DNA of 64,000 bases from Escherichia coli (GCF_024700885.2 NZ_CP117016.1), one strand, 5' to 3'; positions 332 through 30,935 are shown, numbered from the stretch's first letter. The notes: a model not told the origin generated them from the letters alone. Made by a program: numbers and translations.

Positions 332-1132
332 TTACTTGATAAATCCTGCCGCCTTTCCCCGCCTGTATTCCTCCATCAGCCACTGCGCCGGTGTTATTCC
401 CCCAAGGGTGGCGGCGTTAGGCATGCATCCGAAACTTCGCCCTGGTGGATGGTAAACGTCTCTCCCTGTGTCCGGAGGTGTACTCATGGGCTCTGGCTTT
501 GCCTGTATGCTGATCACCGGATCGGGTATCTGCTGTCCGGAAGCCACCTTTTTCGCCCAATCATCGAGCAGCCTGCGCGCGTGTTTCTCAACCTCAATCT
601 CGCTAAGCTGGCGCTGATACATTGCACGGCGGGTATCACATACGACCCAGTACATAACCGGATGTCGCCACGGGAATCTTTCGGGACCACCAGGATATAA
701 ACTTTTTTCCTTGCTGTACCGGTGAAACTCCGCCATCACATCGTCAATGGTGACGCCAAGAACCATCTTGCTGTCTTTACACCACTTGATGAATTGCCCA
801 GGCGACGGCCAGAACGGAGATTCACTGGCGCGGGCGTGGCGCATACCAGCAGAAACCTGTTCACGGGTTCGGATCCCCCCTTCGGCAAACGCAGCAATCC
901 ACTGCTGTTTTGCAGCTACTTCCTGCCCTGGCGTCTTCAGGTTGGTTACCACTGCCGCCGGAAACAGTTGTTTCAGCTGTTTGAAAAGGGCATCAACAAG
1001 CCTCTCTGCTGACATGTTAACCACATTGTCATTGTTGACGTACTGATGCTCATAACCTGACATGCGAGAAAGGGCTTCTCCGTCACGGTTTTGTATCGCG
1101 GTAAAAACGTTGTTCACAAGAAATCCTCCCAT
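332..1132 (-). CDS. Lambda P-like replication protein (helicase loader)
   Basis: 266 aa ORF; segment PFWPSPGQFIKWCKD and FPAAV region parallel lambda P (PFLPSPGQFVAWCRE) as remembered; overlaps 3' end of O-like gene by 19 nt. Confidence 0.8.
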   Translation of the reverse strand: MGGFLVNNVFTAIQNRDGEALSRMSGYEHQYVNNDNVVNMSAERLVDALFKQLKQLFPAAVVTNLKTPGQEVAAKQQWIAAFAEGGIRTREQVSAGMRHARASESPFWPSPGQFIKWCKDSKMVLGVTIDDVMAEFHRYSKEKSLYPGGPERFPWRHPVMYWVVCDTRRAMYQRQLSEIEVEKHARRLLDDWAKKVASGQQIPDPVISIQAKPEPMSTPPDTGRDVYHPPGRSFGCMPNAATLGGITPAQWLMEEYRRGKAAGFIK

Positions 1133-1929
1133 GCTTCAGGGCTGTTCCAGTGCGGAACGTTGTTATCAGGTAATGTTGATTGCTTCTGTCTGCTAATCTG
1201 CAGCCGCCTTGCCAGCTTCTGCTCCCACTGTGCCTGATGGTATGCCTTACCCTCAGCCATCCAGTAAATTCTGAACTCTGCAAGTTCCTGTGCCGTTGGC
1301 AGACTGTCCAGGTAGATCCCCTGCAATGAGCTTTTCCGAAGAAAGTCATCTGATGGCTGCCATTGTTCATGCATGACAAATTTTCCTAATTGCCCTGGTC
1401 CACCAGGAGGAACAAAGTTATTCATCACGGCGTTGTTTGCTCCGGGGTCATGAGGCACAGAATCCCCGCTTTTTGTCCTGCTCTCCCTCTCTTGGTTAAA
1501 TGACTGGTTATATGACTGGTTCTGGATCCCGTTTTTGGGATCATTCAACATCCCGTTTTTGGGATCATTCAACATCCCGTTTTTGGGTATATTCCCGTTT
1601 TCGGGAACATTACCGTTTTCGGGTTCATTACGTCCTTCTAGGTTGCCTTTAATGTTCCCTTTTTTGGTTATATTAAGAGAGAAAACCCGCACTCTTTTCG
1701 TCGCTCCCTTTCTCTCTCCGGTATCTGAAATAAGCCCCATTTTCATGAGCGATATAAGCCCGGCCTGCACGGTTTTTTTATTCAGGCAAGTGTCTTTAAC
1801 GAGGCGTTCTATGCTGGGGTAGCAGAGGTTATATTCATCGGCTCTGTCAGCCATCGAGAGCAGTATGAGCTTTAATGACGAGCTACCTGGATCTGTCTCC
1901 CAGGCCCAATCTGTTGCATGTCTGCTCAT
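1114..1929 (-). CDS. Lambda O-like replication initiator with internal iterons
   Basis: 271 aa ORF with GGAGA SD; N-terminal HTH-like region; central repetitive linker (NGNVPENGNIPKNGMLNDPKNGMLNDPKNG) encoded by tandem DNA repeats; immediately upstream of P-like gene. Confidence 0.7.
   Translation of the reverse strand: MSRHATDWAWETDPGSSSLKLILLSMADRADEYNLCYPSIERLVKDTCLNKKTVQAGLISLMKMGLISDTGERKGATKRVRVFSLNITKKGNIKGNLEGRNEPENGNVPENGNIPKNGMLNDPKNGMLNDPKNGIQNQSYNQSFNQERESRTKSGDSVPHDPGANNAVMNNFVPPGGPGQLGKFVMHEQWQPSDDFLRKSSLQGIYLDSLPTAQELAEFRIYWMAEGKAYHQAQWEQKLARRLQISRQKQSTLPDNNVPHWNSPEAWEDFL
1526..1630. repeat. Iteron array (putative phage replication origin) inside O-like gene
   Basis: Two exact 24-bp tandem units ATCCCGTTTTTGGGATCATTCAAC (1526-1549, 1550-1573) followed by three degenerate units; core dyad CCCGTTTT(T/C)GGG occurs 5 times at 24/24/18/18 bp spacing; TGACTGGTT x2 at 1501-1522. 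Confidence 0.6.
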
Positions 1930-1944
1930 GATTAATCTCCGCTA

Positions 1945-2145
1945 TCAGCTTGAATGTTGTGGGGAGGAATTAATCATGATCTGCTTAATCTCAGCCCTGA
2001 TGCGACGGTTTGATTCCATGGTGCACTCAACACAGTGTCCGTTGTAAACCCAGCGTTCACTGTCATGTCCGTGCTTACATGGTTTTCCGGTGTAGTAGCG
2101 TTTAAGTCCGCGCTTTGCGGCATCAATACGTGTAATGATTTCCAT
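1945..2145 (-). CDS. Small zinc-ribbon-like phage protein (occupies cII position); start uncertain (ORF open to 2214)
   Basis: ORF with CxxH...CxxC pattern (YTGKPCKHGH...GHCVEC); located between Cro-like gene and O-like gene. Confidence 0.4.
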   Translation of the reverse strand: MEIITRIDAAKRGLKRYYTGKPCKHGHDSERWVYNGHCVECTMESNRRIRAEIKQIMINSSPQHSS

Positions 2146-2249
2146 GGTAAGCCCTGTTATTAGTATTGGGATTACGGTCATTTTGTGCTGACACAAAAAA
2201 AAGATCAACCACATTTGGTTTTTTATTACCCTTAAGGTGCGAATAGATA

Positions 2250-2274
2250 TGAAAAGACCGCCGGATGGCGGTCT
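2250..2274 (-). terminator. Intrinsic terminator downstream of Cro-like gene (tR1-like position)
   Basis: Reverse strand hairpin AGACCGCC-atcc-GGCGGTCT followed by TTTTC. Confidence 0.5.
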
Positions 2275-2295: not shown

Positions 2296-2526
2296 TCATG
2301 AGTAGAAGAAGTATGCCAATTCTGCTTTTGAGCGCAGCCATTGTCTTGTTTTACAGGCTTTAAAAAGCCCATTCATCAATACCTTACCTGGCATTTTGCG
2401 CTTACCTGTTAAGTGAGTCTGGATATAGTGACTCGTCGTTCCGGCTTCCTGTGCGAAGGCTTCACGCTCATCCGGAGTAAGTGCAAGCCAGTGCTTTTTG
2501 AAATCGAAATGTCCGTTATCGCTCAT
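2296..2526 (-). CDS. Cro/DicC-like small DNA-binding protein (putative)
   Basis: 76 aa ORF divergent from repressor gene across operator-containing intergenic region; weak SD. Confidence 0.5.
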   Translation of the reverse strand: MSDNGHFDFKKHWLALTPDEREAFAQEAGTTSHYIQTHLTGKRKMPGKVLMNGLFKACKTRQWLRSKAELAYFFYS

Positions 2527-2562
2527 AGCTATTGCCTGATATTTATTTCAGATAATAAATAT

Positions 2563-2625
2563 TCACCCATAAGGTAACAAAAATCAAGGATAGTTACCCA
2601 TGAGGTGCATTTACCTGTTGGGTAA
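2563..2625. promoter_or_regulatory. OR-like operator cluster (three TTACC-N5-GGTAA-type dyads) in divergent repressor/cro intergenic region
   Basis: TCACCCATAAGGTAA (2563-2577), TTACCCATGAGGTGC (2594-2608), TTACCTGTTGGGTAA (2611-2625). Confidence 0.55.
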
Positions 2626-2680: not shown

Positions 2681-3265
2681 ATGAAAAGTATCCAAGACGT
2701 CCGCAGGCAAAATCTCAACGACTTGATCGACCGTGAATTCAATGGTGTTCAGACGCGGATGGCTGAAAAACTTGGAACTCAGGCAAATCTGGTAAACCGC
2801 TGGGCTCTTGGCAAGAAGGTTATCGGCGACCAGGTTGCGCGAAAAATTGAAGCTGCCGCCAATAAACCACGTAACTGGCTTGATATCGATCGCTCGCTTT
2901 CTCAGGAGGGTTTTCAGCCTGTCGGACCAAGCGACATTGGTCAGCTGGCGGCTCACAACCTGGAACGCTGGATGAGCGAAAGCCGCGACCTTTCAACACA
3001 GGGAAAACTTCACCGCGCATCCGGCGTCGCCCAAGTGACAATCAGCCGCCTGTTAAACAATGAGGTCAGCGTTTCCATTTCCACCCTGGAGAATGTTGCA
3101 TCTGCATTCGGACGTCACGGATATGAACTACTGATTCACCCGCACGACCCTGCAACTATCAACTATGACCGCTCGCGCTACGCATTGTTACCTGAAACCG
3201 AGAAAGCAAAGATCGAAAGTTACATTGAATTTGTCATCAACCAGAACGAAAAAAACAAACAATAA
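2681..3265 (+). CDS. Prophage repressor-like protein with two HTH (XRE-type) domains; no S24 peptidase domain evident
   Basis: 194 aa ORF; two segments with HTH-like pattern (MAEKLGTQANLVNRWALGKK... and ASGVAQVTISRLLNNEVSVSISTLENVASAFG); divergent from Cro-like gene; followed by terminator. Confidence 0.6.
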   Translation: MKSIQDVRRQNLNDLIDREFNGVQTRMAEKLGTQANLVNRWALGKKVIGDQVARKIEAAANKPRNWLDIDRSLSQEGFQPVGPSDIGQLAAHNLERWMSESRDLSTQGKLHRASGVAQVTISRLLNNEVSVSISTLENVASAFGRHGYELLIHPHDPATINYDRSRYALLPETEKAKIESYIEFVINQNEKNKQ

Positions 3266-3573: not shown

Positions 3574-3873
3574 ATGAACGTTAATCAGCAGCAAAATCTT
3601 CAAAAAATCATGCTGGCATTCGACAAGGACTACCGCCTGTCAGAACAGCTATATGACCGACAAGTTGAACTGATCGAAAGCATCCGGCTTCATCAACTAG
3701 CCTCAACTTTCGACGCTGTAACAGGTAAAGGCGTTCGCCAGGAAGTACTGGAGGCCGCTAAAGACAGTCCAGAGTTCGAAGAACTGATGGATTCCTACCG
3801 GCGCGAGGCAATGGCAATTATCGCCCGCTGGGATCTGGCTGATCAGCTTGATGGGCAGAGGGACGCGGCATGA
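3574..3873 (+). CDS. Hypothetical phage protein (99 aa)
   Basis: ATG at 3574 with GGAGGG SD 8 nt upstream (track start 3559 lacks SD); stop overlaps next gene start (ATGA). Confidence 0.55.
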   Translation: MNVNQQQNLQKIMLAFDKDYRLSEQLYDRQVELIESIRLHQLASTFDAVTGKGVRQEVLEAAKDSPEFEELMDSYRREAMAIIARWDLADQLDGQRDAA

Positions 3874-4691
3874 AGCCGGGAATTTATTTCGACATCAGCA
3901 ACGAAGACTACCACGCCGGGGACGGCGTGAGTAAGTCGCAACTGGACATGGTTGCCAAGAATCCGGCGCTTCTTAAATGGGTTCAGGCAGCACCAGAAGA
4001 CGAAGAGAAAAAGTCTGCACTGGATATGGGAACCGCATTGCACTGTCTGCTTCTGGAGCCTGGAGAATTCAACAAACGCTTCATTGTTTCACCGAAATTC
4101 GATCGTCGGACGAAACAAGGTAAAGCTGACGAAGAAGCATTTCTTCGTGATGTAGCGGATATGGGGATTACGGTACTTGATGCCGAGCAGTGGCGGAAAC
4201 TGGAGCTGATGCGTGATAGCGCAATGGCTCACCCGGCGGCACGCTGGATGCTGGAAGCACCTGGTTACTGCGAAGCATCAATGTACTGGAATGATGAAGA
4301 GACTGGTGAGTTGTGCCGCATTCGTCCAGACAAATGGCTGAACGAGCACAACGTGATCGTCGACGTGAAAAAGGTTGCAGATATGGACCGTTTTGCACGC
4401 CACATCGAGGAATTCCGCTACCACGTGCAGGACGCAATGTACCGCGAAGGAGCGATGAGGGTTACTGGTCAGTCGCATGGTTTTTTCTTTCTTGCCGTGA
4501 GCGAAAGCATTGATTGTGGTCGGTATCCGGTACGCGTGTTCGAGCTGGATGCGCCGGATGTCGATGCCGGGCACGCTCTGTTCCGCCGGGATCTGAATAC
4601 CTATCACGAATGCCGCATCAATGATGAATGGGGCGGCGTGGAAATTATTAAACGCCCTGACTGGGCACGTAAACAGGATATGTACGTATGA
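3870..4691 (+). CDS. PD-(D/E)XK-family phage exonuclease-like protein
   Basis: 273 aa; D...IVDVKK-type nuclease motif; translationally coupled to flanking genes. Confidence 0.6.
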   Translation: MKPGIYFDISNEDYHAGDGVSKSQLDMVAKNPALLKWVQAAPEDEEKKSALDMGTALHCLLLEPGEFNKRFIVSPKFDRRTKQGKADEEAFLRDVADMGITVLDAEQWRKLELMRDSAMAHPAARWMLEAPGYCEASMYWNDEETGELCRIRPDKWLNEHNVIVDVKKVADMDRFARHIEEFRYHVQDAMYREGAMRVTGQSHGFFFLAVSESIDCGRYPVRVFELDAPDVDAGHALFRRDLNTYHECRINDEWGGVEIIKRPDWARKQDMYV

Positions 4692-5569
4692 GCAATGATA
4701 TCGCAATCACATCACAACCAGGCGCAACTGTAGGTACTGCTGCGGCAATCTTCAGCCCGGAGGGCATGAATCAACTGGTGCGTTTCGCGGAGTTGATGTC
4801 ACAAAGCAAAGCGACTGTACCGAAACATCTTGAAGGCAAACCTGCCGATTGTCTGGCGGTGACCATGCAGGCGGCACAGTGGGGAATGAACCCTTTCGCC
4901 GTGGCGCAGAAAACGCATGTGGTAAACGGAACGTTAGGCTACGAAGCACAGTTGGTAAACGCGGTCGTATCCTCTTCCAGCCTGCTAGCGACACGCCTGA
5001 ATTATCGCTGGAGCGGTGACTGGTCGAATGTTAACGGCAAAACAGATAAATCACCGAATCTGACGGTAACTGTGTCAGCAGTTCTTAAAGGAGAAGCAGA
5101 ACCCCGTGAGCTTACCATCAGTATGGCGCAAGCCGGAGTGCGTAACTCTCCATTGTGGGAACAGGATCCGCGCCAGCAGCTTGCCTATCTTTGCACGAAA
5201 CGATGGGCTCGCCTGCACGCTCCTGATGTACTTCTCGGTGTTTACACCCCTGACGAATTACAGGAAACGGCACCGCGCGTTGAGCGAGACATTACTCCGC
5301 AAACGACTACTGCTGCGGGAATGAACAGTCTGATCAACGCTAAACCAGTGAAAAAGCCTGATGAGCAAACGCGTAAAGCGGATAGCCGTGATCCAGAAGA
5401 AATGCTGATGGCCTTTACCAGCGCAGCGATGAATTACAGCACTGTCTCCGAACTGGATAAGGCTTACAAATACATTGCACAAAAACTTTCAGATGATGAC
5501 GAACTGCTGGCAAAAGCCACCGACGTTTACAGCGTTCGTCGGGAAGAATTAAACGAAACATCTATGTAA
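4688..5569 (+). CDS. Putative single-strand annealing recombination protein (RecT/Bet-like); family assignment tentative
   Basis: 293 aa ORF start-stop overlapping the exonuclease gene (ATGA), the typical exo/SSAP arrangement. Confidence 0.4.
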   Translation: MSNDIAITSQPGATVGTAAAIFSPEGMNQLVRFAELMSQSKATVPKHLEGKPADCLAVTMQAAQWGMNPFAVAQKTHVVNGTLGYEAQLVNAVVSSSSLLATRLNYRWSGDWSNVNGKTDKSPNLTVTVSAVLKGEAEPRELTISMAQAGVRNSPLWEQDPRQQLAYLCTKRWARLHAPDVLLGVYTPDELQETAPRVERDITPQTTTAAGMNSLINAKPVKKPDEQTRKADSRDPEEMLMAFTSAAMNYSTVSELDKAYKYIAQKLSDDDELLAKATDVYSVRREELNETSM

Positions 5570-30089: not shown

Positions 30090-30935
30090 ATGTCCACGAC
30101 ATGGTTTGTAGGAGCCGACTGGCTCGCCGAACATATTGATGACCCGGAAATTCAGATTATCGATGCCCGCATGGCGTCGCCTGGACAGGAAGATCGTAAC
30201 GTTGCTCAGGAGTATCTGAATGGACATATTCCCGGCGCAGTGTTTTTTGATATAGAAGCGCTTTCTGATCACACTTCCCCGCTTCCGCACATGCTGCCGC
30301 GCCCGGAAACGTTCGCCGTGGCGATGCGTGAATTAGGCGTTAACCAGGACAAGCACCTGATTGTCTATGACGAAGGTAATCTTTTCTCAGCCCCACGAGC
30401 ATGGTGGATGCTGCGCACCTTTGGTGTAGAGAAAGTGTCGATTCTGGGTGGTGGACTTGCAGGCTGGCAGCGCGATGATCTGCTGTTAGAAGAAGGTGCA
30501 GTAGAGCTGCCGGAAGGAGAGTTTAACGCCACGTTTAATCCTGAAGCCGTGGTGAAAGTCACCGATGTGTTATTGGCAAGCCATGAAAATACGGCGCAAA
30601 TTATTGATGCCCGCCCGGCTGCACGTTTTAACGCAGAAGTTGATGAACCTCGCCCAGGTTTACGTCGCGGACATATTCCCGGTGCATTGAACGTTCCGTG
30701 GACGGAACTGGTGCGCGAAGGCGAACTAAAAACGACCGATGAACTGGATGCTATATTTTTTGGTCGCGGCGTCAGCTATGACAAACCGATTATCGTCAGC
30801 TGCGGCTCTGGTGTAACGGCAGCCGTGGTTTTGTTGGCACTCGCGACGCTGGATGTGCCAAACGTGAAAATGTACGACGGCGCATGGAGTGAATGGGGCG
30901 CACGGGCAGATTTACCGGTTGAGCCAGTGAAATAA
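30090..30935 (+). CDS. sseA: 3-mercaptopyruvate sulfurtransferase
   Basis: Start set to MSTTWFVGADWL (track ORF begins 53 codons upstream); tandem rhodanese domains. Confidence 0.93.
   Translation: MSTTWFVGADWLAEHIDDPEIQIIDARMASPGQEDRNVAQEYLNGHIPGAVFFDIEALSDHTSPLPHMLPRPETFAVAMRELGVNQDKHLIVYDEGNLFSAPRAWWMLRTFGVEKVSILGGGLAGWQRDDLLLEEGAVELPEGEFNATFNPEAVVKVTDVLLASHENTAQIIDARPAARFNAEVDEPRPGLRRGHIPGALNVPWTELVREGELKTTDELDAIFFGRGVSYDKPIIVSCGSGVTAAVVLLALATLDVPNVKMYDGAWSEWGARADLPVEPVK

Follow-up and report, generated by a model that had tools for sequence, protein, structure and literature searches.

A probable iteron array within the initiator gene of a phiV10-type Escherichia coli prophage

We analyzed a stretch of Escherichia coli DNA of 64,000 nucleotides (nt) (GCF_024700885.2, NZ_CP117016.1; hereafter the window, read 5' to 3' on one strand) and describe an array of five imperfect dyads of about 16 base pairs (bp) inside a phage replication initiator gene carried on the minus strand. 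Judged from the sequence and by analogy with phage lambda, the array very probably supplies the iterons to which the initiator binds at the vegetative replication origin of a phiV10-type temperate phage, an origin located within the gene for the initiator itself. The arrangement is a textbook one and is not annotated for the phiV10-like phage group; neither a phiV10-type origin nor the core motif was described in the searchable literature, which left most subscription journals outside reach. Coordinates of all features are collected in Table 1.

The core CCGTTTTYGGG, given as read on the plus strand, has five exact matches spaced by 24/24/18/18 bp and zero further exact matches outside 1529-1623 on either strand of the 64 kb; its chance expectation is a mean of 0.03, and 0/100 dinucleotide-preserving shuffles reached five. 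Because the host gene lies on the minus strand, the coding-strand core is CCC(A/G)AAAACGG(G), within a dyad consensus of (A/T)TCCC(A/G)AAAACGGGA(T/A). The imperfect 16-bp dyads with their flanks read ATCCCGTTTTTGGGAT (two copies), ATCCCGTTTTTGGGTA, TTCCCGTTTTCGGGAA and TTACCGTTTTCGGGTT, and their arms are ATCCC/GGGAT or TTCCCG/CGGGAA, the internal dyad symmetry that characterizes a lambda-type origin. Tandem Repeats Finder returned a 24-bp unit (x2.6, 100% identity, 1526-1587) and an 18-bp unit (x3.1, 83%, 1577-1631), the former in agreement with a preliminary description of this DNA that had reported exact 24-bp tandem units. The five copies and their spacing also stand as given in that description; its 12-mer CCCGTTTTYGGG, assigned there to all five, is exact in four, the fifth (1612-1623) beginning with ACCG. 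Adjacent iteron halves pair as GGGAT-N8-ATCCC followed by a run of T in 1536-1579 (+ strand).

The array occupies gene nt 305-404 of 816 and its iterons encode amino acids (aa) 102-135, with NEPENGNVPENGNIPKNGMLNDPKNGMLNDPKNG as the encoded peptide, so the expectation that the repeats lie within coding sequence and specify a repetitive linker was borne out. The initiator protein matched phrog_1032 ('replication initiation protein', E 1e-107) in PHROGs and, in Pfam, HTH_36 at aa 18-67 and the DnaT DNA-binding domain at aa 184-252, giving a layout of a winged-helix N-domain (aa 1-90), a disordered linker (aa 91-180) and a domain resembling the single-stranded DNA (ssDNA)-binding domain of DnaT (aa 181-255). 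The array thus falls between the winged helix and the DnaT-like domain, in the mid-gene location of a lambda-type origin. An AlphaFold2 model (88 homologues) predicted a confident winged helix for aa 1-90 (predicted local distance difference test, pLDDT, 95-98), no structure for aa 91-180 (pLDDT <50) and a DnaT fold for the C-domain. Foldseek searches placed the N-domain among MarR/ArsR/BlaI-type winged helices and the C-domain with DnaT (TM-score 0.84-0.87, normalized to the target), and the C-domain matched DnaT chains in the PDB, which are solved ssDNA-binding domains, with E ~1e-20.

The likeness to E. coli DnaT (PDB 4OU6, 6AEQ, 9ZBT) is close in the C-domain, with 50-55% identity over aa 181-255 and the TM-scores above, and is confined to it: aa 180-265 correspond to DnaT residues 85-170, while the N-terminus is an HTH_36 winged helix and not the PriB-interacting domain that full-length DnaT has there. 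DnaT acts in PriA-dependent replication restart and uses no sequence-specific origin, whereas here its domain is fused to a winged helix. The database names 'primosomal protein' and 'DnaT' are incomplete because they cover only the C-terminal domain, and on its sequence features the gene is better described as that of an origin-binding initiator. As judged from profiles and the predicted structure, the initiator family differs from lambda O in this fusion of a winged helix to a DnaT-like domain.

Directly downstream of the initiator gene, as in a lambda-type origin, stands a gene for a lambda-P-like helicase loader, which shares 4 nt with the 3' end of the initiator gene and is 99.2% identical to phiV10 p44. 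Both genes are full length, and their proteins are 96% (initiator) and 99% (P-like) identical to the phiV10 counterparts, in keeping with the earlier suggestion that the replication module is intact. The identification of the array-bearing gene as a replication gene likewise held, through the phrog_1032 match, the P-like loader gene downstream and the 'O-like' profiles phrog_678 and phrog_345, which the N-domain matched.

The same array is present in phiV10, an isolated, plaque-forming temperate phage, where a neighbouring second repeat has one additional 12-bp unit, and in other isolated phages, and distant homologues in five genera have the same core at the corresponding gene position; the absence of the repeats from related functional phages, named beforehand as contrary to an origin, was not what we found. 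Elsewhere in the 39-kb phiV10 genome and in a 48-kb region of E. coli MLI114 the core was not found, so that in both it is restricted to this gene. Alleles were surveyed across 80 IMG/VR loci with N-domains 99-100% identical, all of them near-identical E. coli loci. They carry 4-9 cores each and differ by whole 18- or 24-bp units, always in frame, a pattern also seen in selected RefSeq alleles, and the commonest architecture, 45/18/18/24/24, is that of the window. Since the overlapping reading frame has to stay open, copy number would drift by in-frame slippage of 18 or 24 bp. The degenerate sixth copy upstream of the array in the gene is 89% identical to a reference copy, lies within the gene's least stable 30-mer (nt 253-282) and sits where most of the 80 alleles have a good copy, AACCAAAAACGGG. 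A possible degenerate outlying iteron, for which the evidence is weak, corresponds to GACAAAAAACGGG in ~20/80 alleles, 63 bp past the last iteron.

Beyond these alleles, ten homologues from five genera were compared (phiV10-type, Edwardsiella GF-2, Vibrio Her, Acinetobacter AP22 and a relative, E. coli PPompW, and Burkholderia Bcep176 and three relatives), with N-domains 43-57% identical to that of the window. In the distant relatives, which are phages of Edwardsiella, Vibrio, Acinetobacter and Burkholderia, the same core is found at the matching gene position, and all ten homologues concentrate the 7-mer YCCRAWW in gene nt 250-480, with 3-7 occurrences there against 0-1 in the remaining gene. 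Protein searches returned, among the matches listed, E. coli alleles only, and queries with Bcep176 and AP22 returned close relatives only; an exhaustive search with the N-domain yielded 3,793 cluster representatives (50% identity) at E ≤1e-3. Across the family the core motif co-occurs with the N-domain, and it is absent where the cassette has been swapped.

These comparisons bear on whether the repeats serve the DNA or the protein. A low-complexity Asn/Gly/Pro linker might simply slip, with the DNA motif as a by-product of the peptide; the linker is indeed predicted to be disordered, alleles vary from 4 to 9 copies without leaving the frame, and the peptides PKNG and QNQS recur across the family. 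In the Bcep176 group, however, the motif falls in frames 2, 1, 0, 2, 0, 1, 2 at a spacing of 17/17/17/22/22/22 bp; neither period is divisible by 3, so the core passes through all three frames and produces no peptide repeat. The unrelated peptides PKNG, TQKR and PKT are CCCAAAAACGG read in frames 0, 1 and 2, a reading verified on DNA for the window (frame 0), GF-2 nt 272 and PPompW nt 293 (frame 1) and Her nt 324 (frame 2), and they are enriched only in the linker: among 122 full-length representatives (from the top 150, ≤50% mutual identity), P[KE]NG, [TSPA]QKR and PKT[GAVED] occur 188, 65 and 40 times within residues 85-185 and 0, 2 and 0 times outside them, the PKT class being the least clean since PKTG could be a frame-0 variant with four A's. 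An Asn-to-Ile change in GF-2 (AAC to ATT) turns the core into the perfect palindrome CCCAAAATTGGG, and the minority codons CCC (5/5 Pro) and GGG (4/5 Gly), as judged against neighbouring prophage genes, are used consistently in the window array. Moraxella phage Mcat8 has a 21-bp array of ~10 copies at the matching gene position, with a different motif and a wholly different peptide. The evidence therefore favours a DNA-level, reading-frame-independent element at the winged-helix/linker boundary across a large initiator family, and a purely protein-level origin of the repeats appears very unlikely.

It is likewise very unlikely, in our estimate, that the dyads are sites for another protein, or hairpins in ssDNA or RNA, instead of initiator iterons; a host factor, a partition or regulatory protein, O-like mRNA attenuation, antisense termination and a primosome assembly site are the candidates for such a function. 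The array does fold better as RNA than shuffled sequences (z = -4.4), two weak terminator-like hairpins (1536-1555 and 1560-1579, + strand) run antisense to the initiator gene, and three GATC sites fall within 40 bp. Yet hairpins are a trivial outcome of dyad repeats, so the RNA score and the terminator-like calls are explained by the dyads themselves, of which the hairpins are most likely a by-product; the ssDNA fold is not significant (z = -1.2), no Rfam family matches at the array, no DnaA boxes or IHF sites are found in or beside it, the GATC density is unexceptional for the window, and the motif travels with the N-domain regardless of C-domain or host genus. That the array is a non-functional origin remnant of a defective prophage is the least probable of these alternatives and seems to us very remote. 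The window holds only the arm from int to P, from which intactness is not judgeable; over the 12.5 kb compared, however, it is 100% identical to E. coli MLI114, whose prophage is a complete 39-kb element between guaA and yfgI with all modules and no pseudogene flagged, the initiator and P-like genes are full length, and the array has the commonest allele architecture.

Several properties of the array and its surroundings match those of ori-lambda, the likeness claimed in the preliminary description, which the comparison supports by analogy (the initiator, the P gene, the shared O-like profiles and the array position). Iterons and an AT-rich tract, placed midway along gene O, define the lambdoid origin, and iteron number differs between phages, with six in Stx phages and four in lambda (PMC7466680); the phiV10-type range of 4-9 is likewise variable. 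The four iterons of lambda (ATCCCTCAAAACGAGGGA and variants) span nt 349-433 of gene O, comparable to nt 305-404 for the window array, and the AT-rich least stable 30-mer of gene O starts from nt 446. Both systems have dyad iterons with an A-tract centre (ATCCCTCAAAACGAGGGA in lambda, GATCCCAAAAACGGGAT in the window), a spacing of ~18-24 bp, a mid-gene position at the junction of the N-domain with a flexible linker, a following gene for a P-like helicase loader, and transcription of the module from an immunity-region promoter (presumed in the window). They differ in the C-domain, which is DnaT-like in the window and not of the lambda O type, in the flank, which consists of 12-bp repeats of moderate AT content compared with a ~40-bp AT-rich tract in lambda, and in the iteron arms, which are shorter in the window (5 bp with a 6-bp centre).

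Edwardsiella phage GF-2, whose protein matches phrog_391 ('replication initiation O-like'), is informative because it combines features of both. Its N-domain is 57% identical to that of the window (aa 1-88), 24-bp iterons (ATCCCAAAATTGGGAT x3) occupy the matching gene position, CAGAAT and 12-bp short repeats follow them, and a P gene lies downstream; unlike the window initiator, its C-terminal half is of the lambda-O type (phrog_277, phrog_391), and its iteron centre is AAAATT, which makes the iteron a perfect palindrome. From this chimera of N-domain, iterons and lambda-O-type C-domain we infer that the module substitutes for the origin-binding half of lambda O. Winged-helix initiators that bind direct repeats in or near their own gene, with an easily melted region alongside, are also known from iteron-type plasmid and phage 'replisome organizer' origins inside rep genes, for example those of SPP1 (gene 38, oriL) and of lactococcal phages; these initiators belong to protein families, and use repeat sequences, different from those of the window initiator.

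A second tandem repeat of 12-bp units lies directly downstream of the iterons in the sense of transcription and is preceded by CAGAAC. In 7/10 loci, CAGAAC (or CAGAAT or CGGAAC) stands at precisely +15 relative to where the last iteron starts, and the element of this type in Bcep176 is in a reading frame different from that of the other loci. Short repeats of 9-13 bp follow it in GF-2, Vibrio phage Her, Bcep176, Mcat8 and PPompW; the units are AACCAGTCATAT x2.4 in the window, an identical 12-bp unit in three full copies in phiV10, GAACCAGTCAT(T)A x2.5 in Her, a 12-bp unit x3.4 in GF-2, GAACAGTAG x3.8 in Bcep176 and CCTATTAATAAA x3.6 in Mcat8. The block tracks the type of N-domain and not that of the C-domain. 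Ranked by duplex stability among the 30-mers of its gene, the block is third from the bottom in the window (z = 2.0), second from the bottom in Her and lowest of all in GF-2, Bcep176 and Mcat8; the minimum of the window gene falls immediately upstream of the array, at gene nt 253 (z = 3.0). We read the block as a probable unwinding element or second recognition element.

A number of points weigh against an origin of this kind. For this family, no demonstration of binding, unwinding or origin activity was found in the searchable literature. Unlike lambda, the array is adjoined by no strongly AT-rich tract, the AT fraction of the 40 bp beside it being ≤0.60 downstream and ≤0.68 upstream compared with 0.75 in lambda. 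Synonymous recoding, in which 0/20,000 sequences reached the observed four CCCN6GGG dyads, speaks for a constraint on the DNA but overstates its significance, because the copies are recent duplicates and do not count as independent evidence one by one. The peptide PKNG...QNQS is itself conserved across the family, and the linker may have an additional role at the protein level. BLASTP against lambda O was not significant (E = 0.07 over 17 residues), and the initiator had no match to Phage_rep_O in Pfam or to phrog_277 in PHROGs. The window N-domain and the lambda O N-terminal region do share the profiles phrog_678 and phrog_345 at overlapping profile positions, which suggests a remote homology that is transitive, through these shared profiles. 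No solved structure of lambda O was found in the PDB.

If the array is the initiator-binding part of the origin, replication could proceed as follows. N-terminal winged-helix dimers would bind each dyad of 14-16 bp (TCCC-RAAAAC-GGGA, with an A5 tract at its centre), and the bound dyads together would form an O-some-like nucleoprotein array. Flanking DNA of low stability would then melt, the candidates being the block at 1493-1521 and the AT-rich stretch at ~1650-1677. The DnaT-like C-domain may engage the single strand, the P-like protein or both, bringing the host DnaB, and transcription from the pR-like promoter would cross the origin and probably assist, as in lambda.

More broadly, it is possible, although we hold this only tentatively, that the CCCAAAAACGG core together with the CAGAAC/short-repeat block is a nearly invariant origin signature of an initiator family that is very large, with 3,793 clusters (50% identity) from phages of Enterobacterales, Vibrio, Acinetobacter and Burkholderia, and that joins a winged-helix-plus-origin cassette to interchangeable helicase-recruiting C-domains. 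The C-domains joined to the cassette are DnaT-like, lambda-O-like, or others followed by a gene for a DnaB-type helicase. Were the core the recognition site, unrelated phage initiators could fire or titrate each other's origins, so that prophages residing together might cross-activate one another, interfere with each other's replication or exclude each other through decoys, and the DnaT-like variant would tie the recognition of a lambda-type origin to the primosome machinery of PriA restart. In this family the linker peptides PKNG, TQKR and PKT are shadows of a DNA site, a rule by which protein sequence alone can point to the origins of phage genomes in their thousands, and the variable copy number (4-9) may serve as a prophage typing marker. 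For phiV10/Uetakevirus-type prophages, which reside in ~8% of complete E. coli genomes, the array pins the likely replication start site; phiV10 itself serves as a reporter phage for O157. The principle is that of ori-lambda, with nothing new added to it, and the most useful by-product is the family-wide, frame-independent core CCCAAAAACGG with its short-repeat block.

Exchange of the whole module is seen in TL-2011b-type phages, whose flanks are 96-97% identical to those of the window and in which the segment corresponding to window 863-2202 is replaced, which takes out the initiator gene in full together with the 5' portion of P and a small open reading frame (ORF) upstream. Repeats of the window type were not found in the TL-2011b-type initiator gene, and its N-domain differs (phrog_2509); the repeats present there are GTAACGC-N5-GCGTTAC x2 plus a half site, followed by GATATATATAAAA. 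The 19-bp palindromes lie at 2727-2745 and 2936-2954 of the TL-2011b locus, with an AT-rich run after them. The TL-2011b cassette is probably a different origin type, and the swap would look like modular replication cassettes that each bring their own origin.

Signs of activity are circumstantial and begin with the isolation of phiV10 and its relatives as viable phages. Two circular records of 41,027 bp (NZ_CP079771.1 and NZ_CP079768.1), deposited as 'plasmids' of two duck E. coli strains, are complete phiV10-like genomes with a 98% identical initiator, which suggests episomal or induced circular forms. A further circular E. coli 'plasmid' of 8,461 bp (NZ_CP148379.1) consists mostly of a Rac/PPompW-type module (repressor, cro-like, YdaT, DnaT-like initiator, P) and resembles lambda-dv; it is given little weight as a possible artefact because it comes from a single-cell assembly. 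A second plasmid record of ~8.5 kb is linear, and both 8.5-kb records are hints and not evidence.

Table 1. Features of the array, the initiator gene and the surrounding prophage genes (window coordinates)
Feature	Position	Strand	Remarks
lambda-P-like helicase loader gene	332-1117	-	phrog_109, E 1.9e-91; RefSeq 'replication protein P'
Initiator gene, 271 aa	1114-1929	-	array at gene nt 305-404
Possible degenerate outlying iteron	1463-1478	-	coding strand GACAAAAAGCGGGGAT
Second tandem repeat, 12 bp x2.4	1493-1521	-	TGGTTAAATGAC; coding strand AACCAGTCATAT / AACCAGTCATTT
Iteron array	1526-1631	-	five imperfect dyads of ~16 bp, inside the initiator gene
Iteron cores (+ strand coordinates)	1529-1539, 1553-1563, 1577-1587, 1595-1605, 1613-1623		spacing 24/24/18/18 bp
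Degenerate sixth iteron-like copy	1656-1674	-	45 bp on from the fifth copy; TCCCTTTTTTGG; coding strand AACCAAAAAAGGGAA
Small ORF upstream of the initiator gene	within 863-2202		replaced in TL-2011b-type phages
Terminator-like hairpin	2255-2274		upstream of the initiator gene
cro-like gene	2296-2526	-	
sigma-70-like promoter, presumed pR-type	2552-2580	-	between the repressor and cro-like genes; consensus scan
Repressor gene (candidate)	2681-3265	+	divergent; two helix-turn-helix domains
PD-(D/E)XK exonuclease gene	3870-4691	+	
RecT gene	4688-5569	+	

The element that carries the array is a phiV10-type (Uetakevirus) E. coli prophage as judged by sequence identity, and it is apparently intact. 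At 97-98.5% identity, the region matches phiV10, vB_EcoP_PAS61 and phiv142-3, all isolated temperate phages (Uetakevirus), and it was found in 423 of 5,426 complete E. coli genomes. Window positions 1 to ~8570 correspond to phiV10 35363 back to 26720, the window starting inside the prophage.

The promoter between the repressor and cro-like genes matches 9/12 consensus positions, in a scan whose number of sites was not above that of shuffles, and it is called pR-type because of its position. The repressor candidate has two helix-turn-helix domains and no S24 peptidase domain; induction therefore probably does not proceed via RecA-stimulated self-cleavage. In phiV10, a Bro-N antirepressor-like protein is encoded elsewhere in the genome. 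The exonuclease and RecT genes of the window are separate and overlap by 4 nt, where the phiV10 record has instead a single fused RecE-RecT coding sequence, with an alignment gap at phiV10 30101-30383. From ~8570 onward, the end of the prophage beside guaA gives way to ordinary E. coli chromosome (guaBA and xseA, per the MLI114 annotation), in which Rfam matches to sroE, STnc490, IS128, ryfA and the iscRS element were found.

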